DNA of 20,745 nt. Origin: Gammaproteobacteria bacterium. GTDB taxonomy: Bacteria > Pseudomonadota > Gammaproteobacteria > Thiohalomonadales > Thiohalomonadaceae. The translations under genes were made by a program, and so were the position numbers. The DNA is taken from assembly GCA_023228645.1 (NCBI GenBank), contig JALOAT010000060.1:1-20745 (forward strand). Direction: 5' to 3'. Each line of letters begins with the position of its first letter. Position 1 is the stretch's first letter. Of the stretch, positions 2,542 to 20,345 are shown piece by piece. Below the pieces are notes generated by a model. That model did not search any database. It saw nothing but the letters and a program-made list of their open reading frames with translations, and was not told where the DNA came from.

Positions 2542-3042
2542 ATGTTTGGACGTAAAAAGAAAGAAATCAATACCGGATCCTACACTGTCGACTTTTCAGA
2601 TAAAACTCAATCAGTAAATAATACTGATACAGTTTTAGAATCATATTTCAATGATCCAGTTGAGGAAGATGGACCTCAAGAAGATTTCAATCCAATCGAC
2701 AAACTATACTATTTCCTGTCAGATTTGATGGATGTGTATGAGGATTGGTCTGTTTCTGAATCCGGAATCGACAATGAAGGATATACCAATTATACTGTAA
2801 TACATAGAACAAAACCAATAACTGTCAATTTTAACAGTTATAATAATGAAAATGAAGCAACAGTTTTAATTTCTGGTGAAGATGTTGAAAATATTATAGG
2901 ATATGATATGACAGCAGATTTGGCTGATAAAATATATGATATAATCAACGAGGTTGAGGAAAGATTGGAAGAAGAGCGCGAAGTTAGAAATAACGAATCA
3001 GCTCAACGAATTCTTGATATGCTTGGATATGGAGAAGATTGA
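2542..3042 (+). CDS. highly acidic hypothetical protein (166 aa)
   Basis: ORF from the track with SD AAAGGCAAA. The protein is very rich in D and E. Confidence 0.55.
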   Translation: MFGRKKKEINTGSYTVDFSDKTQSVNNTDTVLESYFNDPVEEDGPQEDFNPIDKLYYFLSDLMDVYEDWSVSESGIDNEGYTNYTVIHRTKPITVNFNSYNNENEATVLISGEDVENIIGYDMTADLADKIYDIINEVEERLEEEREVRNNESAQRILDMLGYGED

Positions 3043-3242
3043 TGAAACTTTCTGAAACACAGCTTGATCAAATGATCACACTCTGGCACGATGATAAATC
3101 AATTCTTTGTGAACTCCACGAATTTTTGGGTTTGTCTAAAGAAGATTATTCTAAATGGGTTAAAACTCCTAGTTTTCAACCTGAAAGTGATTTGGATGAA
3201 GATGAAGTTAATTTCATTCTGAGTATGAAAGGAAGATGTTAA
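3039..3242 (+). CDS. hypothetical protein (67 aa)
   Basis: Its start overlaps the upstream stop (ATGA). ORF from the track. Confidence 0.5.
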   Translation: MMKLSETQLDQMITLWHDDKSILCELHEFLGLSKEDYSKWVKTPSFQPESDLDEDEVNFILSMKGRC

Positions 3243-4468
3243 TGTCGGTTCACATTTTTGGCGGTGGAACCTTTTTTCACGTTCGCAACCATATGGCGCT
3301 TTGCGCACCAGCATTTGGTAAAACTGCTCGATATATTAATACCTTTTATGACGATGCATTCTTGCATTTGACAAAAATGGCTGATCCAAATTCAATTCTT
3401 GATACCAATGAAGATGTTGAATATAAGCTTGATAAGCTCATTGAGGATCCTTATTGCAAGATCATCTATTTCAATGTTGCACTTTGTGATTATGAGGGAT
3501 CTATCTTGGATGGCACTCTTGAAGATTGTATAACTCCATCAGGAAAATACGCTCCTCGACTTAAAACTCGAGAAGGTCTACAGCATATGCGCCTCACGCC
3601 GGCAGCTAAGTTGATTGGCAAGATTCGCAAGACTCGCAAGGATATTTTTGTTGTTGGATTTAAGACGACCTGCAACGCAACACCTGATGAGCAATATCTT
3701 GCAGCATTGAATATGTTGAAAGAAAATTCTATCAACTTGGTTCTCGCGAACGATACAGGTAATCGTCGAAATATGATTGTTGCTCCAGAAGAAACTCGCT
3801 ATTGCGTTACTACTGATCGAAATAAAGCACTTACAACTTTGGTAGAAATGACCAATAGCAGGTCTCGAAACACTTTTACCCGATCGACGGTAATTGATGG
3901 CGATCTTGTTCCTTGGAATTCAAATGAAATTCCTGACAATTTGCGACAGGTGGTCAATCACTGCATCAAAAGAGGAGCATACAAGCCCTTCCGGGGATCA
4001 ACTGCTGGTCACTTTGCAGTCAAGGTGAATGAACACGAAGTTTTGACATCTGTTCGCAAGACAAATTATAATGATTTGGATAAAAGCGGATTGGTTCGAA
4101 TTGAATACGACGGTCTCGATAAAGTCATTGCGCACGGCGCGAAGCCAAGTGTTGGAGGTCAGAGTCAGAGAATTGTGTTTGACGAGCATCCAGATTTGGA
4201 CTGTATTGTACATTTCCATTGTCCTACTAAGGAAAATGTTCGTGATTCGCTATCACACGTGGATCAGGCGCCATCAGAATGCGGGTCACACCAATGCGGG
4301 TCAAGAACATCAAAAGGATTAAAGTCTTTTGGGAATCTGGAAGCAGTGATGCTTGATAATCACGGGCCAAATATTGTCTTTTCTAAGGATACCCCAGCTC
4401 AAGAAGTTATTGATTTTATTGAAGCAAACTTTGATCTTGAAGCTAAGACTGGTGGCTTGGTAAGTTAA
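3236..4468 (+). CDS. two-domain enzyme: N-terminal CoaB/DFP-like (phosphopantothenate-cysteine ligase-like) domain fused to a C-terminal class II aldolase/adducin-like (FucA/MtnB-like) domain
   Basis: N-terminal IFGGGTFFHVRNHMALCAPAFGKTARYI is reminiscent of the CoaB motif [24 protein letters not shown]. Further on, DIFVVGFKTTCNATPDEQYLAALNMLKENSINLVLANDTGN is reminiscent of CoaB ...YVVGFAAETNNV...KNLDLICANDVSQ. C-terminal GSTAGHFAVKV...AHGAKPSVGG...HPDLDCIVHFHCP...LDNHGPNIV parallels the class II aldolase motifs GTAGNVSVR / KLPSSEW / AVVHNHAVH / LLQHHG. The His metal ligands are retained, but the conserved Glu is VGG here. The alternative start ATG at 3242 has better SD spacing. Confidence 0.6.
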   Translation: MLMSVHIFGGGTFFHVRNHMALCAPAFGKTARYINTFYDDAFLHLTKMADPNSILDTNEDVEYKLDKLIEDPYCKIIYFNVALCDYEGSILDGTLEDCITPSGKYAPRLKTREGLQHMRLTPAAKLIGKIRKTRKDIFVVGFKTTCNATPDEQYLAALNMLKENSINLVLANDTGNRRNMIVAPEETRYCVTTDRNKALTTLVEMTNSRSRNTFTRSTVIDGDLVPWNSNEIPDNLRQVVNHCIKRGAYKPFRGSTAGHFAVKVNEHEVLTSVRKTNYNDLDKSGLVRIEYDGLDKVIAHGAKPSVGGQSQRIVFDEHPDLDCIVHFHCPTKENVRDSLSHVDQAPSECGSHQCGSRTSKGLKSFGNLEAVMLDNHGPNIVFSKDTPAQEVIDFIEANFDLEAKTGGLVS

Positions 4469-4479
4469 TTCTTACCAAG
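4456..4479. terminator. 9-bp perfect hairpin (CTTGGTAAG-TTAATT-CTTACCAAG) spanning the convergent stop codons of 3236..4468(+) and 4465..5310(-)
   Basis: Inverted repeat seen directly. There is no clean T-run on either side, so its role as a bidirectional terminator is tentative. Confidence 0.35.
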
Positions 4480-5310
4480 CAACTCTTTCCAAGTAATTTG
4501 AATTCCGCGTTTTTTGTAAGCCTCGACTGGATTTGAATAAACTCCGGTTGGGGTTTCATTATTTCTAAAATATGTCAACCATTCTCTTGATGTTTTTGAA
4601 TTTGTTGATTTGAAATATTCTTTAAATTCATCCAATGGCATAATATTTTCCATATAACGTTGTGATAATGCTTCTTGTGCTTTAATTTGGGCCTCCGTTT
4701 TTGGCAATCCTTTTCTTTTTAAAGACCATCGCTTTTTAGTTTCTTCGGAATGTTTATAGCCTTTACGCTTTTCGGCAATTTCTTTATATTGCTCGTCAGA
4801 CAACAATTTTCGTCCCTTTAATGAATTGCTAATTTTTTTCTTTGTTTCTTCGGATATGGTGCGCCCTTTTTGATGTTGTGGGGCCGCCATCTGTGCTTCA
4901 GTTTTTGGTTTACCTTTTCGCTGTTGGCTTAATAATTGCTTGGTAGATTCTGAATGAATCATTCCAGCAGTGCTTTCGCCACCATTCGTTAAGTTACTCA
5001 ATGGCCCTAAATTTAAATTATATCTTCCAATAACTTTAATGAAATGTATTTCCCACAATTGTGCTTCTTGTTTGGAAAGATTTTCTTTTAATTTAATAAT
5101 TATCGGTTTCTGGCCTAAATCTAATATATGTTTAATTTTTCCATTTTTTATAGGATTACAATTAGAATTCAAGCTGTCAGTTTTTAAATGAGCTTGATAT
5201 CGTTTACCTTTGCCCATTCCAATATAAAATGGCTCAAAATCAAAATTTTCTCCATTATAAGAAAAATTTCCTGGCTTTCTTGGATCTAAATATGCGTAAA
5301 CATAAAACAT
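4465..5310 (-). CDS. GIY-YIG homing endonuclease with NUMOD3-type repeats (free-standing, opposite strand to its neighbours)
   Basis: N-terminus MFYVYAYLDPRKPG...PFYIGMGKGKRY carries the GIY...YIG motifs. Central repeats (SEETKKKISNSLKGRK; SEETKKRWSLKRKG) are NUMOD3-like. C-terminal tail NPVEAYKKRGIQITWKEL is shared with the second endonuclease. Confidence 0.8.
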   Translation of the reverse strand: MFYVYAYLDPRKPGNFSYNGENFDFEPFYIGMGKGKRYQAHLKTDSLNSNCNPIKNGKIKHILDLGQKPIIIKLKENLSKQEAQLWEIHFIKVIGRYNLNLGPLSNLTNGGESTAGMIHSESTKQLLSQQRKGKPKTEAQMAAPQHQKGRTISEETKKKISNSLKGRKLLSDEQYKEIAEKRKGYKHSEETKKRWSLKRKGLPKTEAQIKAQEALSQRYMENIMPLDEFKEYFKSTNSKTSREWLTYFRNNETPTGVYSNPVEAYKKRGIQITWKELLGKN

Positions 5311-6681: not shown

Positions 6682-8061
6682 ATGTTTAGCACTATGACTT
6701 TGGCCATTGGTGGCATTGTCCTAGCAGCATTTGTAGGTATTCTATTTTTTGCTGCTTTGATTTTCCGCCGCGTGGTCCCAACAAATATGGTACATATCGT
6801 TCAGTCGTCTAAAAAGACTGTTTCATATGGCCGTGGACGTACTGAAGGTAATACGTATTACGAAATTCCTTCTTCGATTCCTTTTTTCGGTGTTACTGTT
6901 ACTCAGTTCCCAGAATCAGTTTTCGATATTAACTTGAAAGATTATGATGCTTACGACGTTGATCGTTTGCCATTCCTAGTCGACGTTCGTGCGTTCTTCC
7001 GCATTAGCGATTCACAGATTGCCGCCCAGCGCGTTTCGAACTTTAATGAGCTTCGTGACCAGCTTTCAGGTGTCCTCCAGGGCGCTATCCGTAACGTTCT
7101 TGCACAATATACACTTGATCACATTATGAGCGACCGCGCAACTCTTGGTAAACAGTTCTCTGATGTTGTTGATGGTGGCTTGACTGAATGGGGTGTTTCA
7201 ACCGTCAAGACGATTGAATTTATGGACATTCGTGATGCTCGCGATTCACAGGTTATCCACAATATTATGGCTAAGAAAAAGTCATTTATTGAAATGGAAA
7301 GCCGTATTGAAGTTGCTAACAACAAACAGGCTGCTGAATCAAAAGAAATCGAAGCTCAGCGTCAGATTGCCCTTTCAAAGGCAGAAGCTGAACAGACTGT
7401 TGGTATTCGCGAAGCTGAGCGTGACAAGACTGTTGGTATTGCTAACGAAAAGTCAAACCAGGAAGTTCAGGCTGAAGCAAAGGTGACTACTGAACGCCAG
7501 ATGGAAGTTCGCAAGGTTGCCGAAGTTAAGCAAGCTGAAATCAACCGCGATGTTGCTGCCGTTAAGGCAGAACAGGACCAAAAGGTTCAGGTCATTGCTG
7601 CTGAGGCTGATAAAGAATCACAGATTCAAATCGCCGAAGGTAAGTTGGAAGCTACTAAGAAAGAAGCACAAGGTGTTGAAGCTCTTGGTAACGCTAAGGC
7701 CGAGGCTGAAAAGGCACTGTTGCTTGCACCAGTTAACGCCCAGTTGACTCTTGCTAAGGAAATTGGTGAGAATGAAGGTTACCAGAAATATCTCATCGAG
7801 ATCCGTAAGGTTGAAGCTGGTGAAAATGTCGGTAAGGAAATGGCTGGTGCGATGTCACAAGCTGACCTTAAGATCATTGCCAACAGTGGTGATGTACAGG
7901 GCGGCATTGGAAAATTGGCTGATGTGTTTACCCCAGCCGGTGGAACCAGCCTTGCTGGTATGTTGAGCGCATTTGCTCAAACTCCTGAAGGCGCCGCAGT
8001 AGTTGAGGGTATCACAGCAAAGCTTAATGCCCCTGCTGAAACCGGTAAGAAAGCTAAGTAA
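6682..8061 (+). CDS. flotillin-like SPFH (band 7) domain membrane protein (459 aa)
   Basis: N-terminal TM helix (LAIGGIVLAAFVGILFFAALIF). An SPFH-like region. A long A/E/K/Q-rich coiled coil, typical of the FloT/YqiK family. SD AAAGGAAAATGAATG. Confidence 0.8.
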   Translation: MFSTMTLAIGGIVLAAFVGILFFAALIFRRVVPTNMVHIVQSSKKTVSYGRGRTEGNTYYEIPSSIPFFGVTVTQFPESVFDINLKDYDAYDVDRLPFLVDVRAFFRISDSQIAAQRVSNFNELRDQLSGVLQGAIRNVLAQYTLDHIMSDRATLGKQFSDVVDGGLTEWGVSTVKTIEFMDIRDARDSQVIHNIMAKKKSFIEMESRIEVANNKQAAESKEIEAQRQIALSKAEAEQTVGIREAERDKTVGIANEKSNQEVQAEAKVTTERQMEVRKVAEVKQAEINRDVAAVKAEQDQKVQVIAAEADKESQIQIAEGKLEATKKEAQGVEALGNAKAEAEKALLLAPVNAQLTLAKEIGENEGYQKYLIEIRKVEAGENVGKEMAGAMSQADLKIIANSGDVQGGIGKLADVFTPAGGTSLAGMLSAFAQTPEGAAVVEGITAKLNAPAETGKKAK

Positions 8062-8155: not shown

Positions 8156-8509
8156 GTGAAATTCATCTTGGAATTCTCTGATTCAGATTTTGAAGAAAAA
8201 GGATGGGAACGTCCATCAACTGAATTTTCGTTCGACTTGAATCTACCATTTGATTATGATAGTGACGCTTGGTGGGATTGGGATGACAGTGTTCTTCTTG
8301 ATCAAGTTAGTGATATGGAAGAGTACGGCGTTCACGATTACACAGCTGGCGGCGATAAAGATGGAAATTGGACTCAATTTGGATATCATTCCTATGAAAT
8401 CAAGCAAGATAAATGGGAAGAAGTAGTTCAAAAATGGCACGAATGGTTTGTTGAGCAAGGTTTTCGGCCTGGTGAAATTACATCGGAAGAAATTAAGGAA
8501 GAAGAATAA
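8156..8509 (+). CDS. acidic, Trp-rich hypothetical protein (117 aa); GTG start
   Basis: SD AGGAG 7 nt upstream of the GTG. The protein is strongly acidic. Confidence 0.5.
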   Translation: MKFILEFSDSDFEEKGWERPSTEFSFDLNLPFDYDSDAWWDWDDSVLLDQVSDMEEYGVHDYTAGGDKDGNWTQFGYHSYEIKQDKWEEVVQKWHEWFVEQGFRPGEITSEEIKEEE

Positions 8510-8925
8510 TGGAAGTTTTAGTTACTACTGTTGGCGCGGTTCGTGATCACGGCGATACTCTTACTATCGTGACAGTTGGTGAGCACGAAGTTGTCGCTAA
8601 CAAGAAGGAAGATGGGACCCCGCGATGGACTGCTGGAGAACTTGTTGTTTATGTCCCAGAAGGGGCCATCATTCCAGATGATGTGCTCAAAGAGCGTGGA
8701 TATTGGGATGAAGTAAAGGGTAAGGGCTTGCTTGAAGGCAAGCGTGGAAATCGTGTGAAAATGCGTCGTTTTGCTGGCTTCGAATCTCGCGGTTTATTGT
8801 TCAAAGTTCTTCCATCAGTAGATGCGATTCCGGAAAATCATATTCAGCGTGGCTGTGATTACCAAGGCGTGAACTTGGGTGATAATGTTATGGAATTTCT
8901 TGGAATTACGGAGCATACTGTATGA
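8509..8925 (+). CDS. tRNA-binding OB-fold domain protein (CsaA/Trbp111/EMAP-like, tRNA_bind family), stand-alone (138 aa)
   Basis: VGAVRDHGDTLTIVTVGEHEVVANKK...GELVVYVPEGAIIPDDVL...KMRRFAGFESRGLLF follows the tRNA_bind pattern (vG-V...L-v-Vd-G...vVsGa...Ga-lP...klRGv-SeGML). Assigned from motif memory only. Confidence 0.5.
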   Translation: MEVLVTTVGAVRDHGDTLTIVTVGEHEVVANKKEDGTPRWTAGELVVYVPEGAIIPDDVLKERGYWDEVKGKGLLEGKRGNRVKMRRFAGFESRGLLFKVLPSVDAIPENHIQRGCDYQGVNLGDNVMEFLGITEHTV

Positions 8926-9155
8926 TTGAGAAATATACTGATACCGATCTTTACAGCCAGGAATGGCGGCCATCTGACGATCAAATCTTGGCTGCTGCCA
9001 GAGTTATAGATAGTGACCTTCGTTTCTACGGACTTCTTAGGGAGTATCCTACATACGAAGAAATGCTCATCAGTGATCCAATTGGAGCCAGCGAATGGGG
9101 TGGTACGATAGAACGAATGTTGCTTGCTGCCCACAAGGCCCAAAATGATGATTAA
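8922..9155 (+). CDS. hypothetical protein (77 aa)
   Basis: Its start overlaps the upstream stop (ATGA). Confidence 0.45.
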   Translation: MIEKYTDTDLYSQEWRPSDDQILAAARVIDSDLRFYGLLREYPTYEEMLISDPIGASEWGGTIERMLLAAHKAQNDD

Positions 9156-9504
9156 CTACGCAGGTATTCGTTCAGTCAAAGCTGGAGAAAAAATCATACC
9201 TATAGTTTGGGTGAAGGATATTGATATTTCGACCATAGAAGAAGGTCATATTACTATATCTACATATGAGGGAGAAATACATAAATCATATGGATTTGAT
9301 GCTATTGAAACCGTTATGGTTTTTAAGCCGAGTGCTCTTGAAGGTCGACGCCTAAAGTGGAAAAAGAATGCTTGGCGTTTTCATAACTTCATAATTCACC
9401 CACTTTTAGAAATCCTTTCAACATTAGGTTTCAAACGCCAAGCGGTGAGATTACACGATTGGGGTACTCCAACGCCTCGTGGATTTAAAGATACTTCTTC
9501 TTAA
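9124..9504 (+). CDS. hypothetical protein (126 aa)
   Basis: ORF from the track. Its 3' end overlaps the convergent endonuclease gene by 20 nt. Confidence 0.45.
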   Translation: MLPTRPKMMINYAGIRSVKAGEKIIPIVWVKDIDISTIEEGHITISTYEGEIHKSYGFDAIETVMVFKPSALEGRRLKWKKNAWRFHNFIIHPLLEILSTLGFKRQAVRLHDWGTPTPRGFKDTSS

Positions 9505-10369
9505 TTTCCATCCAAGATGTTTTAATTCCTCTTCTTGAATATGCCACTATCGGATTTCGTGGTATGTTGTTAGGAAGTGGATTGTTATTAATATATTCTT
9601 GCCATTTTGAATAACTATTGACATTGATAGATTTTAGAAAAAATAGAAAATCTTCGAAACTGATATAGTTTTCTCTTAATTTCTCTTTAGTCTCATCTGA
9701 AAGTTTTTTACCAAGATTGGCCTTTCGTAGTTTTTCTTTAACGCTGTCAGGTCTTGTTCTACCTGTCAATGCTACTCTTATCTTTTCAATAGACTCAGCT
9801 GATGGCTTGGCTCGATTTATTGCTGATCGTCTAAGTATTTCTTTGGTTTTTTCAGAAGCTTTAGATCCTTTTTTAGCCTTACTTATTTTGGCTTTAGCTT
9901 CATCAGTATGACCTTTGCCCAATCGCGCAGCTTGTATGGATAAAACTTGCTTTTCGCGATAAACTGGATCATTCCACTTGGAAGTTTGTATTTCACTTTT
10001 AGTTTTGGCAACATTATTTTTAGCGTAGTTCTTCTTATAAGTAGTTTTTTGTTTTTCGATACTACGTTCATCATTATAGAAATTAGTTCTACCGATTTGC
10101 TTATTAAGCCACTGGTTTGAACTGTGACAATGAAAACACTCTTGAAATTTAATTTCTAAATTTATGATCTGATCAACACCGCCAGCAGCTAAGATTTCAA
10201 TCACATCTGGCTCGCCATTAAATGCTCGGAATTCTTTCACATAATGACTTGATGTGAAATATGTTTTCCATAAATTTGATGGATGAGCACTTTTTCCATA
10301 TTGGCATCCAACATACCATTTGTCTATTTTAGACCATCCAATTATGTAAAGATAAGGCAAATTTTCCAT
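9485..10369 (-). CDS. second free-standing homing endonuclease (GIY-YIG-like N-terminus, NUMOD3-type repeats, C-terminal tail shared with the 4465..5310 endonuclease)
   Basis: N-terminus LYIIGW...KWYVGCQ. Repeats (SEIQTSKWNDPVYREK; DEAKAKISKAKKGSK; AESIEKIRVALTGRTR; DSVKEKLRKANLGKK; DETKEKLREN). C-terminal NPIVAYSRRGIKTSWMEI matches NPVEAYKKRGIQITWKEL of the first endonuclease. Confidence 0.7.
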   Translation of the reverse strand: MENLPYLYIIGWSKIDKWYVGCQYGKSAHPSNLWKTYFTSSHYVKEFRAFNGEPDVIEILAAGGVDQIINLEIKFQECFHCHSSNQWLNKQIGRTNFYNDERSIEKQKTTYKKNYAKNNVAKTKSEIQTSKWNDPVYREKQVLSIQAARLGKGHTDEAKAKISKAKKGSKASEKTKEILRRSAINRAKPSAESIEKIRVALTGRTRPDSVKEKLRKANLGKKLSDETKEKLRENYISFEDFLFFLKSINVNSYSKWQEYINNNPLPNNIPRNPIVAYSRRGIKTSWMEIKKKYL

Positions 10370-11187: not shown

Positions 11188-11670
11188 ATGAAATATACGT
11201 ATCCATTTACCGCAATTTTCAAATGCGGTTATACTACCGAAGTGAACAATTCTTCTGAGCTTCGAGCGCTCGTGAAAGAATATGGAGCATTTGGCTATGA
11301 ATGGATTGAAACATCATTTAGCCGAGCATATCGCTATAAGCCTTTTTGTGAAACATATCCAAAGGACTATGTTCCACGTTTCGAATCAGCTCACTATTTC
11401 GAATGGATCGTTCGAGATTTTTATGGTTTAAAAGTCGACTATGCTTTAGTTGAATTTGATGAAAAACCGTACCGAGCTTGGTGGGCTTCCGGTCGATATG
11501 AGGAACAGAGAAAGGCTGCTGAAAGAGGCCTGCCGATTCCATACGTTCGCAGCCGCTGGAGGGCAAACCGCAAATATCCAAAGAATGGCCGCCGCGGCGT
11601 CGCGGCAAGAAACAGCCAGGATAAAAAGATTTTTAATAAAAACAAGAGCCAAAATAATTTCGATGAATGA
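11188..11670 (+). CDS. hypothetical protein (160 aa) with a basic C-terminus
   Basis: SD TAGGAGAATG upstream. ORF from the track. Confidence 0.55.
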   Translation: MKYTYPFTAIFKCGYTTEVNNSSELRALVKEYGAFGYEWIETSFSRAYRYKPFCETYPKDYVPRFESAHYFEWIVRDFYGLKVDYALVEFDEKPYRAWWASGRYEEQRKAAERGLPIPYVRSRWRANRKYPKNGRRGVAARNSQDKKIFNKNKSQNNFDE

Positions 11671-15142: not shown

Positions 15143-15452
15143 TAAACATTTGGATCAGATTCCGGAGGATGCCATTTATATTGGAAGGGGATCAAAATGG
15201 GGTAATCCATTTAAGATAGGTGTTGATGGTAGCCGGTCTCAAGTTATTTTCCTATACGAAGAATGGCTTAAAACACAGGATGAACTTATTGATTCAATTG
15301 ATGAACTTAAGGACAAAAGTCTTGTATGTTTTTGCAAGCCAAAACCGTGTCACGGTGATATTTTAATTAAAGTTCAGCGTATGGATTTTAATGATAGGAA
15401 GTTGTGGAAAGAAAACTTTTTTGACCGTAGAAATTTTTTTCAAGGGGCATAA
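15132..15452 (+). CDS. DUF4326-family protein (GNP and CxC motifs; 106 aa)
   Basis: YIGRGSKWGNPF and SLVCFCKPKPCHGD match my recollection of the two signature motifs of DUF4326. Confidence 0.55.
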   Translation: MILNKHLDQIPEDAIYIGRGSKWGNPFKIGVDGSRSQVIFLYEEWLKTQDELIDSIDELKDKSLVCFCKPKPCHGDILIKVQRMDFNDRKLWKENFFDRRNFFQGA

Positions 15453-17587: not shown

Positions 17588-18343
17588 ATGATCCCGGTGT
17601 ATAATGTGAATGGCTTACCATTCTGGTCTCAAGAAGACATCAAACTTAGAAATTATCTGAAGGATCATTTTGCATCCAAAGTATTTGGAATTCTTGAACA
17701 GGAGAATCCAGCTTGGAAGATGCTTGAAATTGAAGCACCACTTCTAACACCAGTAAGTTTAATCAATCCAAACTACACAAATGAAGATGTGTGGATGCAA
17801 GAACGTATGGATAATGAGATTAACCATTTAGTTCTTCGTCCAGAAACGACTCCTGGTTCATATGCCTATGCTAAGCATCTTTTAGAATCGCATTCAATTT
17901 ACAAGCCACCATTTATTGTCTGGCAGGCAGGTAAAAGCTTCCGTCGCGAGCAGGACCAAGTTAGTAAGAATATGCGTTTGAAGGAATTCTATCAACAAGA
18001 ATTCCAGTGCATCTACACTGCTGACACTATGAATGATTATCACACTGCTGTTCTTGATCCAATCAAGGATATGTTGGCAGATGCCTGCAATCTAAGTGCT
18101 CGAGTGATTGCCAGTGACCGTCTTCCTTCATATAGTGAGATTACGATGGATGTTGAGGTATTCAACGGTGACAAATATATGGAAGTTTGCTCCATCAGCC
18201 GCCGCACTGATTTCCCAACTAAAGCAAGATTCCAAACCAAGAAAGGTTTGGTAGAGAAAGATTTGATGGTTCTTGAAATTGCTATTGGTTTGGACCGCGT
18301 GATCTATAATAGGAATCATATTGACAGATCACGCCCATTTTAA
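17588..18343 (+). CDS. truncated class II aminoacyl-tRNA synthetase-like catalytic core (HisRS/HisZ-like), lacking an anticodon-binding domain (251 aa)
   Basis: LVLRPETTPGSYAYAKH matches HisRS LTLRPEGTAGCVRAGIEH. FIVWQAGKSFRREQDQVSKNMRLKEFYQQEFQCIY matches motif 2 ([27 protein letters not shown]). C-terminal ...CSISRRTDF...AIGLDRVIY resembles motif 3 (GGGRYD...AMGLERLVL). All compared against HisRS from memory. Confidence 0.6.
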   Translation: MIPVYNVNGLPFWSQEDIKLRNYLKDHFASKVFGILEQENPAWKMLEIEAPLLTPVSLINPNYTNEDVWMQERMDNEINHLVLRPETTPGSYAYAKHLLESHSIYKPPFIVWQAGKSFRREQDQVSKNMRLKEFYQQEFQCIYTADTMNDYHTAVLDPIKDMLADACNLSARVIASDRLPSYSEITMDVEVFNGDKYMEVCSISRRTDFPTKARFQTKKGLVEKDLMVLEIAIGLDRVIYNRNHIDRSRPF

Positions 18344-18356
18344 TTAGAGTGGATAA

Positions 18357-20345
18357 ATGACGAAACTTAATAAAGAACAACAAGAAGCAGTAGATCACAA
18401 AGATGGGCCTTGTATTGTTTTGGCCGGGCCCGGCGCCGGCAAGACGGCAGTATTGACTCGTCGCACCGCAAAACTGGTAGATTCAGGCGTAGCACCTGAA
18501 CGAGTATTGTTATTAACGTTTACTCGTTTGGCTGCTAAGGAGATGCTTGATCGGGCAAAAGCCATCAACCCATTGTGCGAAAAAGTTGACGGCGGCACGT
18601 TTCACAGTCTTGCTACCCGCATAGTCAATCAAAATAATCATTTGTTTGGTAAAACCAAGCCATTTACTATTCTTGATGTTGAGGATAACCAGACAATAGT
18701 CAAACAGTTGACTAATGAAGTCAGAAATGGATCCACAGATGAGGATTGGCCATCGCCATCAATGATTCAGCGAATTATTAGTTTTTCAACTAACACTCGA
18801 ATGACTATTGCTGAATCTATTTTTTCAGTATCTCCTAATTATGTTCATCTCACCCAAAAACTTGAAACTATACGTGACAAATATTTTGATTATAAAATTG
18901 AACGTGGATTATTGGACTATGATGATTGTTTGGAATATTTTTCTGCACTCTTGAGTAATGAAGATATCGCTCCAGCAATTAGGGCCAAATGGGACTATGT
19001 CTTAGTTGATGAATATCAGGATACTAACCAACTCCAACTTGAGATCGTATATGGGCTGGTACACAAATCTAAAGCCAATATTATGGTTGTGGGTGATCCA
19101 GCCCAAAGTATATATTCTTTTCGTGGATCTGCCCCAGAAACTATGACGGGCTTTAGAAATCGTTTCCCTAAATCTAAAATAATCAATCTTGATACCAACT
19201 ATCGATCCACACCAGAGATTGTTGATGTGGTAAATTCAATTGATAAGCGACTTGGTATTGGTTTTAATAGAACATTACATTCATTTCAAAAGAGTAGTGA
19301 TGACTTACCTAACTTTGTTGAATGTGGAAATGTTAATTCGCAGGCTGTCACATTGGCTGATAATATACTTGAAAGCAAAAATTCAGGTAAATGTATGTTA
19401 TCTCAAAACGCTGTAATTGTTAGAGCTATGGCGTATGCTCGCCCTATTGAGATTGAATTTACAAAACGTAAAATACCTTATAAAATTGTCGGTGGATTGC
19501 GTATTGACGAGGCTGCCCACGTTAAGGATCTGCTCTCATTGGCCCGAATCGCAACGAATCCACAGCACGAACCCGCTTGGCTTCGAATATTGACGAGATT
19601 TAAAAAGCTTGGTGCAAAAACAGCAAATGAAATATCCAGTCTGATGGCTAATGCTGTTGGAATCCAGGATGTTGTTGATCAGCTTGAAAATTACCCTTCT
19701 AAGAAATTTGATTTTAAACCCGTGATCAATTCTCTAAAGGAGTTTGATAAAAGTGATCTAACTCCTGCTGAAAAACTAGAACTTTGTGTCCAATATATGG
19801 AACCAATTTGGTCTACCATAAAAGAATGGAAAGATGATTGGAAGGACCGTAAAAAGGATCTTGAATCTATAATATCAATAGCTAATGATCATTCTACTGT
19901 AGAATCGTTTCTATCAACTATTACTCTTGATTATTCCGTTGACAACAAAAAGATTCACGAAAAAGAACCAAGATATGAAGATGATATGATTACTATTACT
20001 ACTGTTCACGGTTCTAAGGGCCTTGAATGGCCAAGGGTTCATATTCCATCTTTTATATCTGGTCACATACCTTCAACTTATACTCTTGACACAAAAGAAG
20101 AAATGCGTATATTGTATGTCGCAGTGAGTAGAGCAAAGAAAGAATTGTTTATCTACAAACCGCTGTTCAATCCGCAAGGATCATTTTCACAAGAATCTGA
20201 ATTTGAACCGATGATTAAGCCACATTGTAATGTGGTTAGAGTTAAAAAGGGATCTCCTTTAGGGAGTGACAGAATAAATTCATCAACTAAAATTGATATG
20301 AAGGCAGTGCTGGCCGCGAAGATGAAAAAACGCCAAACTGCTTGA
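18357..20345 (+). CDS. UvrD/Rep/PcrA-like superfamily 1 DNA helicase (662 aa)
   Basis: Motif I GPGAGKT, Ia [43 protein letters not shown]. The C-terminal domain carries the [10 protein letters not shown] motif and a ...VAVSRAK... motif. Confidence 0.85.

Follow-up and report, generated by a model that had tools for sequence, protein, structure and literature searches.

The closest described relatives of the protein analyzed here belong to two well-studied folds. One is that of CoaB, the phosphopantothenate-cysteine ligase (PPCS), which in CoaBC is joined to the flavin-dependent HFCD decarboxylase CoaC; the other is the class II aldolase/adducin fold, whose members include FucA, RhaD, AraD, MtnB and OtnC and, as non-aldolase members of the PF00596 superfamily, pyruvic oxime dioxygenase and HMPD decarboxylase. 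Here, we describe a gene that encodes both folds in one polypeptide, found in a 20,745-nucleotide stretch of DNA (the window: GenBank assembly GCA_023228645.1, contig JALOAT010000060.1, positions 1 to 20,745). As in CoaBC, a CoaB-type ligase is covalently linked to another enzyme domain, which suggests that one metabolite passes through two successive steps; unlike in CoaBC, the two domains come in the opposite order, and a metal-dependent aldolase fold takes the place of the flavin-dependent decarboxylase. The fusion is a novel domain architecture that is widespread, and its reaction is probably new. Judged by its sequence, it appears to work like a CoaB-type ligase coupled to a class II aldolase-fold metalloenzyme, and it falls outside every characterized enzyme family of either superfamily: it fails their equivalog thresholds and is missing one defining catalytic residue in each domain.

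Gene structure and conservation of the fusion

An earlier note, made from the letters of the window alone, had placed a 410-amino-acid open reading frame (ORF) at positions 3236–4468 of the plus strand, and it lies exactly there. Residue numbers throughout follow this ORF, and all window features given below are on the plus strand unless stated otherwise. The true start is probably the ATG at 3242, which gives a protein of 408 amino acids (3242–4468), because three observations converge on it. The 5′ end reads AGGAAG-atgt-TAATG, in which the TAA of an upstream ORF (3240–3242) overlaps the ATG; the Shine-Dalgarno-like AGGAAG lies 6 nt 5′ of the ATG; and a database gene call that is 100% identical to the window protein, P0001, also has 408 amino acids. 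The upstream ORF encodes 67 amino acids (3039–3242), its stop overlapping the start codon of the fusion gene, and the two are most likely translationally coupled.

The structure model of the fusion has a predicted local distance difference test score (pLDDT) of 92.1 and a predicted template modeling score (pTM) of 0.90, and in it the two domains are confidently modeled and predicted to be rigidly packed. An alignment of 150 sequences covering phages and cells contains 78 positions that are at least 97% conserved, so the ORF is conserved far beyond chance. All or nearly all representatives of 50%-identity clusters have GGT, H19, D85, R108, E185, H259, R274, Q311, H326, H328, C349, C354 and H376. 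The putative active-site residues of both domains are thus clearly under very strong purifying selection.

The CoaB-like N-terminal domain

The N-terminal domain (residues ~3–215; 3242–3880) has the CoaB Rossmann-like fold, as the earlier note had proposed for this half of the protein. To map its residues onto CoaB, we used an E. coli CoaBC sequence, in which N210 and K289 fall at the expected positions, together with a HMMER alignment to 2gk4. The motifs of the family are a GGGT loop (3260–3271), D85 (3488–3490) in (A/L)CD(Y/F), R108 (3557–3559) in SGKYxxRLKT, GFKTT and LANDT, and the alignment pairs them with the CoaB GGT/GPT loop, D279, K289 of the KxKK flap, GFAAET and ANDV, respectively. 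G10-G11-T12, D85, R108 and A171-N172-D173 are kept family-wide, D85 and R108 being invariant. In CoaB, the motifs of the nucleotide site and flap serve to make an acyl-nucleotide out of a nucleoside triphosphate and a carboxylate. The segment that ends in the conserved SGKYxxRLKT (residues ~92–116; 3509–3583) varies in length and is the sole lower-confidence part of the model (pLDDT 69–80) and the indel-rich part of the alignments. Both properties are as expected of a mobile lid, and we infer that this segment is the counterpart of the mobile CoaB flap that closes over the acyl-cytidylate.

The domain differs from CoaB in several respects. Identity to CoaB/PPCS (the C-terminal domain of E. coli CoaBC, human PPCS 1p9o and S. 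pneumoniae 2gk4) is 12–18% only. Among the models tested for this activity (EC 6.3.2.5; PF04127, TIGR00521, TIGR02114 and NF005231), Pfam DFP (PF04127) had no match to the fusion protein at E≤1, and the NCBIfam CoaB models matched residues ~97–198 weakly, far under their equivalog cutoffs (26.8 bits versus 265, 21.1 versus 219.7 and 21.5 versus 217.2). A universal P-E185-E motif is specific to the family. CoaB N210-H-S-S-G, at the start of helix 1, aligns to an invariant A24-P-A-F-G28. CoaB Asn210 is reportedly required for the second half-reaction, in which the acyl-cytidylate is converted with cysteine. Because this Asn210 motif is replaced by APAFG, the domain looks fit for the binding of a nucleoside triphosphate (NTP) and for nucleotidyl transfer, and not for the canonical PPCS reaction. 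Its fusion partner is an aldolase-fold domain and not CoaC, and a coenzyme A (CoA) pathway context was not seen either: the annotated neighbors of ~170 loci include neither CoaC nor other CoA-biosynthesis genes. A PRK-family kinase of unknown specificity lies near the fusion in four loci.

The class II aldolase-fold C-terminal domain

The C-terminal domain (residues ~220–410; 3893–4465) has the class II aldolase fold, again as the earlier note had it, and Pfam Aldolase_II (PF00596) matches residues 254–331 above its gathering threshold (E=1.7e-8; 35 bits versus a cutoff of 22.2). The NCBIfam models for OtnC, MtnB, AraD and FucA match residues ~237–331 weakly and all below threshold; the equivalog cutoffs missed are 250 bits for OtnC (score 19.6), 226 and 137 for MtnB (18.7 and 13.8) and 264 for FucA (12.6). 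The His metal ligands are retained, in agreement with the earlier note: H326-x-H328 (4211–4219), universal in the family, aligns to FucA His92 and His94. The third presumed ligand, H376 in an invariant H376-G-P-N (4361–4372), we take to be the equivalent of FucA His155 by the (L)LxxHG motif of class II aldolases. This putative three-His metal site (H326, H328 and H376) is universal among 89 representatives.

Compared with the class II aldolase/adducin proteins, the domain is shorter (~190 amino acids), and the position of the Glu/Asp general base is Gly across the family. The replacement of the catalytic Glu that the earlier note had seen is thus real: in the motif K-P-S-V-G-G-Q-S-Q-R (4142–4171), K-P-S-V-G307 aligns with FucA L-P-S-S-E73, so that G307 occupies the position of the catalytic, metal-binding Glu73. 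No acidic general base or fourth ligand corresponding to FucA Glu73 or AraD Asp76 is kept at this position, which is Gly in 88 of the 89 representatives. A second difference is a family-specific insert, E348-C349-G-S-H352-x-C354-G (4277–4300), in which two Cys are universal (E-C-G-S-H-x-x-C in the superfamily comparison).

Two positions in these motifs covary. The main clade has Gly at position 308 (4157–4159), where an acidic residue, Glu or Asp, is confined to a divergent clade, and position 352 (4289–4291) is His in 41 of 46 representatives with G308 and in none of 11 with an acidic residue at 308 (Fisher p=2.4e-8, phylogeny uncorrected). This covariation suggests that H352 took over the role of the acidic residue at 308. 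The family (G308 with H352 versus E308 or D308 with a residue other than His at 352) would then be an example of a catalytic or metal-binding residue that has apparently moved to another position of the class II aldolase fold. We also considered the C-terminal KTGG as a ubiquitin-like tail and dropped the idea, the motif being neither universal in the family nor at the true C-terminus.

Distribution and relatives

A word-indexed search returned 3,539 homologs. The best 120 of these are all full-length (400–515 amino acids) and 56–100% identical, and many are on contigs of more than 200 kb; all 120 are named ‘hypothetical’. An exhaustive HMMER census of 1.84 billion cluster representatives gave 915 clusters at E≤1e-3 and 293 at E≤1e-30, with the two-domain form predominating. 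The earlier note had allowed that the architecture might prove common and already annotated; it is common, by these counts, and it is not annotated. Minority forms in the census are a smaller set of standalone N-domain proteins and C-domain-only entries that are possibly fragments. Longer matches proved to be two-domain proteins enlarged by insertions, or else frameshift artifacts, with no informative domain swap among them, and some homologs bear an N-terminal XRE-type helix-turn-helix (HTH) domain. We found no description of the family in the literature, no characterized protein of this architecture in the literature searched or in any family library, as the earlier note had supposed, no defense-system match in PADLOC and no match in the BFVD viral structure library at E≤0.001. 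A survey devoted to viral NAD-ADPr systems names no aldolase and no CoaB/DFP domain (PMC9503650).

Cultured phages carry the N-domain only, in a gene of 209–318 amino acids (Pseudomonas Otagovirus-like and Caulobacter Bertelyvirus phages). These standalone DFP-like proteins (PHROG 35624; Otagovirus PN09/phiPsa374, Bertelyvirus CcrBL9) are homologous to the N-domain of the fusion at 34–44% identity and share with it GGGT, H19, LALAAPAFGxTA, LTKMAD, CD[FY], GFKTT and LAND. They lack the P-E-E motif, have no aldolase-fold domain fused or adjacent, and have DUF4326 or M23 peptidase genes as neighbors; only they pass the Pfam DFP threshold. We asked whether they are one half of a split gene and rejected this, as the genes 3′ of them are non-aldolase (weak Prok-E2_A, DUF1360 and M23 peptidase matches).

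Among GTDB species genomes, 102 stretches carry a relative of the fusion, all in metagenome-assembled genomes (MAGs), and the 80 that were kept show 45–59% identity. They belong mostly to Saccharibacteria and other members of the candidate phyla radiation (CPR), Bdellovibrionales, Micavibrio, Polyangiaceae and other Proteobacteria; Alphaproteobacteria chromosomes also hold homologs. Misbinned phages were rejected as the source of many of these loci, in which the GC content fits the taxon (0.60–0.71 in Polyangiaceae) and long genes alternate between the strands. Housekeeping neighbors in cellular loci include ClpB, ValRS, TsaD and a Mur ligase, and elsewhere yfhM-pbpC. Some short or low-GC MAG contigs among the cellular matches may be viral. 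Huge phages, CPR bacteria, myxobacteria and Alphaproteobacteria thus share, at 50–60% identity, a nameless family that has neither a literature nor an assigned reaction, although both of its catalytic-looking domains are intact. Its carriers are biased towards entities that live at the expense of other bacteria.

The window itself derives from a huge phage, despite its Gammaproteobacteria MAG label. P0001 lies on a 465,559-bp metagenomic parent contig (ERZ27247376 k141_1276970), and the identical protein is named by NCBI ‘MAG: hypothetical protein M0R77_18405 [Gammaproteobacteria bacterium]’. We base the assignment on gene layout and content (small ORFs in same-strand runs, an array of tRNA genes, a pair of genes of the homing-endonuclease type, and genes for a UvrD helicase and ClpP) and on the homologs of the fusion on large viral contigs (200–580 kb in IMG/VR), with a terminase in one relative's locus. 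Since the parent contig has these huge-phage features, the MAG is probably a misbinned phage genome. The earlier note had treated the fusion as a phage gene; this holds for the window, but the family also resides in the chromosomes of CPR and predatory bacteria.

Gene neighborhoods

To compare contexts, we clustered the ORFs of 150+ loci by BLAST and extended the annotated clusters with hidden Markov models; at 70% identity, the fusion falls into 82 lineages. No neighbor is universal across its loci. The most frequent and most widespread partner, often translationally coupled, is u115, a ~115-amino-acid protein without known fold or family (9148–9504 in the window), which has the invariant pattern GFDAIE...KPSALEGRR...HN...HP...HD...TPxPR. 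In CPR genomes, a divergent TrmB-like HTH regulator adjoins the fusion (29 loci, 25 of them within 300 bp), and a search for an effector-binding fold in its C-terminal part gave no PDB match. In Polyangiaceae, Bdellovibrionales and Rickettsiales-type loci, the gene directly upstream encodes a LysR regulator. Together with the XRE-HTH of some homologs, these regulators are typical of inducible small-molecule metabolism. An M23 peptidase gene is directly downstream of the fusion in 10 cellular loci (1–2 lineages), and in L028 and L056 the order is fusion, M23, u115.

Viral loci are rich in small ORFs, and within 8 kb of the fusion several genes recur in several distinct arrangements: ADP-ribosylglycohydrolase (ARH), PARP+WGR, His_Phos_1, CYTH, HD_4, Thg1 and RNA ligases. 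ARH occurs within this distance in 9 of 78 viral loci (4 of 52 lineages), PARP+WGR in nine loci, and His_Phos_1 is directly adjacent (≤300 bp) in five loci from the phage and genome-collection sets. ADP-ribosylglycohydrolase (ARG) domains occur in only ~5% of jumbo phages (PMC9503650). Set against this figure, for any ARG in the genome, the ~8–12% of cases with ARH within ~15 kb of the fusion amount to a strong enrichment, with backgrounds that are not strictly comparable. DUF4326, predicted to process terminal phosphates of ADP-ribose derivatives (PMC9503650), lies 4 kb from the fusion in L167. In phage PN09 (L001:4684–4992), the standalone N-domain gene is directly preceded by a DUF4326 gene; in phage Astolliot (L003:5579–6253), an M23 peptidase gene follows the standalone gene, and a CYTH gene lies 3.3 kb downstream. 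The partners of the standalone genes in these two phages mirror those of the fusion.

In four Saccharibacteria loci with differing gene orders (L053, L055, L067 and L079), a minority of all fusion loci, the fusion and its regulator lie inside a complete NAD-salvage/ADP-ribose island, whose genes encode NadD-like, NadE, NrtR, PnuC, NadR-like, a PncA-like isochorismatase, NAPRTase, Nudix, ADP-ribosylglycohydrolase and His_Phos_1 proteins. A second Saccharibacteria arrangement places HIT, RlmH, a winged-HTH-Nudix protein, CYTH and a PRK-family kinase around the fusion. Upstream of nadD/nadE, pnuC-nadR, arh(-hisP) and pncA-pncB, the intergenic regions of the islands share a palindrome of 21 bp, TTAGTGT-N7-ACACTAA, which often comes as two tandem copies ~49 bp apart (L055:954–1023 and 11166; L067:442–510 and 11227–11296; L079:3256–3327, 7066 and 9340–9409; L053:8462–8525). 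A shuffled-sequence control had 2 matches in 1.05 Mb. This palindrome is a plausible candidate for the NrtR operator of the Saccharibacteria phylum.

A possible function and its alternatives

We consider it about 40% probable that the fusion is a bifunctional enzyme whose substrate is phosphorylated, derives from a nucleotide and belongs to NAD+/ADP-ribose turnover; the enzyme part of this reading is much firmer than the NAD part. In this model, the N-terminal domain would activate the substrate by NTP-dependent nucleotidyl transfer, with an acceptor or nucleophile other than that of CoaB. The metal domain would bind a phosphorylated, sugar-like part of that metabolite or transform it in the manner of an isomerase, lyase or decarboxylase, with H352 or the Cys pair (C349/C354) filling the role of the missing Glu. 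It is the gene context that points to a nucleotide-derived substrate connected with NAD+/ADP-ribose turnover. Of the functions that the earlier note had offered, this context favors a nucleotide or cofactor pathway and is less favorable to DNA modification. CPR and predatory bacteria would use the fusion for a salvage or recycling step that is inducible through a dedicated regulator. Huge phages would carry it as an auxiliary gene with which to maintain or exploit the NAD/ADP-ribose pool in infection, possibly against NAD-depleting host defenses.

Precedents exist for parts of this model. In NAD metabolism, NadE likewise makes an amide by way of an acyl-nucleotide intermediate, and phages reportedly rebuild NAD+ from ADP-ribose and nicotinamide by NARP1 (Adps and Namat) and NARP2 (NadV and NadM), which is the kind of role that the context suggests for the fusion. 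The folds differ: NadE is a PP-loop ATPase, Adps is PRPP-synthetase-like and Namat and NadV are NAMPT-like, all unrelated to a CoaB-like plus class II aldolase protein, and none of the NARP1 or NARP2 component folds (NadM included) is matched by the fusion. In the Saccharibacteria island, moreover, NadE is encoded besides the fusion. A less likely extension is that huge phages, CPR bacteria and predatory bacteria share in the fusion an unrecognized enzyme of NAD+/ADP-ribose recycling, in which activation by nucleotidyl transfer would precede a metal-dependent step on a sugar phosphate. In phages, it would make up with u115 a third route, separate from NARP1 and NARP2, by which the NAD/ADP-ribose pool is restored or diverted in infection. 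The placement beside NAD-salvage and ADP-ribose genes would tie the family to NAD-depletion defenses and phage countermeasures, and the family is also of interest for CPR bacteria, whose metabolism is poorly understood. The identity of the substrate would probably define a new reaction built from known folds, and would annotate thousands of ‘hypothetical’ genes.

Several observations weigh against a link with NAD. Neighbors of the NAD/ADP-ribose type occur in only 24 of ~150 loci (13 of 82 lineages), most phage neighborhoods are uninformative small ORFs, and the commonest partners, u115 and the M23 peptidase, have no NAD connection. The ARH enrichment has its background in a different dataset, with phylogeny uncorrected. 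Within the island, all canonical NAD-salvage steps are already encoded, with no obvious missing step, and the fusion is therefore no stand-in for NadD or another known step; as a replacement of NadD in particular it was rejected, a NadD-like cytidylyltransferase being present in the same island. Finally, none of the four loci has the palindrome in the TrmB-target intergenic region upstream of the fusion. The fusion is thus co-located, and not co-regulated, with the predicted NAD regulon; direct regulation by NrtR is not supported, and the gene is apparently run by its own regulator.

Other readings of the same data account for some of these features. The phage neighborhoods would fit RNA or tRNA repair or modification, with the ligase-like domain activating or conjugating RNA or a by-product (ADP-ribose 1″-phosphate or a cyclic phosphate) and the metal domain handling the ribose-phosphate. 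Phage loci are near Thg1 (nine loci, six lineages), RNA ligases (clusters c23 and c15), PTH2, aminoacyl-tRNA synthetases and tRNA arrays, CYTH and HD_4 are common neighbors, and in the window an RNA-ligase-like ORF of 138 amino acids (phrog_968; 8509–8925) sits next to u115. RNA repair consumes NAD and yields ADP-ribose derivatives (PMC9503650), through which this explanation partly overlaps with the one we prefer. It is nonetheless unlikely, given that the fusion has no RNA-binding domain and a near-neutral isoelectric point of 6.4, and that cellular loci have metabolite-type regulators and lie in NAD-salvage rather than RNA-repair operons; huge phages are generally rich in translation genes, so the proximity may be incidental. 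The likeness to CoaBC invites a second enzymatic alternative, in which the fusion would do the work of CoaBC in a pathway resembling that of CoA or pantetheine. It would ligate an amine to a phospho-carboxylate and decarboxylate the product in the aldolase-fold domain, whose superfamily counts decarboxylases among its members. We judge this quite improbable: Asn210-His-Ser-Ser is replaced by an invariant Ala-Pro-Ala-Phe, the score of 26.8 stands against a CoaB equivalog cutoff of 265, and CoA-pathway genes were not seen among annotated neighbors. Decarboxylation of phosphopantothenoylcysteine, besides, needs flavin chemistry, which the aldolase fold does not provide.

A bacteria-attacking lifestyle, which phages, CPR epibionts and predatory bacteria have in common, is what an amide-bond ligase for a peptide or cell-envelope substrate, working with the M23 metallopeptidase and u115, could suit. 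The taxa are indeed skewed to predators and parasites of bacteria, M23 is directly downstream in the 10 cellular loci and also follows the Astolliot standalone gene, and the order fusion, M23, u115 appears in two loci. The M23 association, however, is limited to 1–2 lineages, the fusion has no signal peptide, both folds are those of cytoplasmic metabolic enzymes, and the class II aldolase domain has no known peptide chemistry, which leaves this explanation little chance. The loss of both the canonical catalytic Glu and CoaB Asn210 could instead mean that the protein is a non-catalytic sponge or sensor that sequesters a nucleotide signal, ADP-ribose-derived or other, its aldolase-fold domain a scaffold for oligomerization or binding like the inactive adducin head domain. 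Phage anti-defense sponges for NAD-derived signals exist, and the fusion sits among early-type small ORFs. We find this very unlikely, because the extreme conservation of metal ligands, flap, NTP-site residues and Cys pair is typical of catalysis, because cellular chromosomes carry the fusion with metabolite-type regulators, and because a single-copy, two-domain protein of 408 amino acids is unlike the known small sponges. As for hypermodification of phage DNA, modified DNA is frequent among huge phages, some pathways of thymidine hypermodification involve ligase-type chemistry, and a glycosyltransferase is nearby in one phage group. Yet the annotated neighborhoods hold no recognizable DNA-modification partners (hydroxymethylases, base-modifying kinases or transferases), and a 50–59% identical protein stands beside housekeeping genes in CPR, Polyangiaceae and Alphaproteobacteria chromosomes, making this role hardly credible.

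Other genes of the window

Convergent with the fusion gene, and overlapping its stop codon by 4 nt, is a GIY-YIG and NUMOD3 homing endonuclease gene (4465–5310, minus strand). Its cluster (c24) also adjoins the fusion gene in some other phage loci. A second NUMOD3-like ORF (9485–10369, minus strand) overlaps the end of u115. On the other side of the fusion, tRNA-Arg(TCG) (1422–1495) is the last of a seven-tRNA array (Gln ×2, Lys ×2, Thr, Val and Arg; L004:988–8254 on the parent contig) that reaches ~6 kb upstream of the window. It is followed by a gene (1514–2215) for a protein that has a long low-complexity region rich in Ser, Gly and Thr and, at its C-terminus, a PEP-CTERM sorting motif (Pfam E=1.8e-6); as PEP-CTERM is a bacterial exosortase signal, its presence in a phage protein may hint at the host type. 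Further genes encode an SPFH/Band7 protein (6682–8061), a short class II aminoacyl-tRNA synthetase-like protein (tRNA-synt_2b; 17588–18343) and the UvrD-family helicase (18357–20345).

The window also has a DUF4326 gene (15150–15452), a possible loose functional neighbor of the fusion. On a near-identical contig, NADAR and PTH2 genes follow past the window end (L172:21102–21695, ~9 kb beyond it). The phage from which the window derives thus carries a loose cluster of ADP-ribose-associated domains (DUF4326, NADAR and PTH2).

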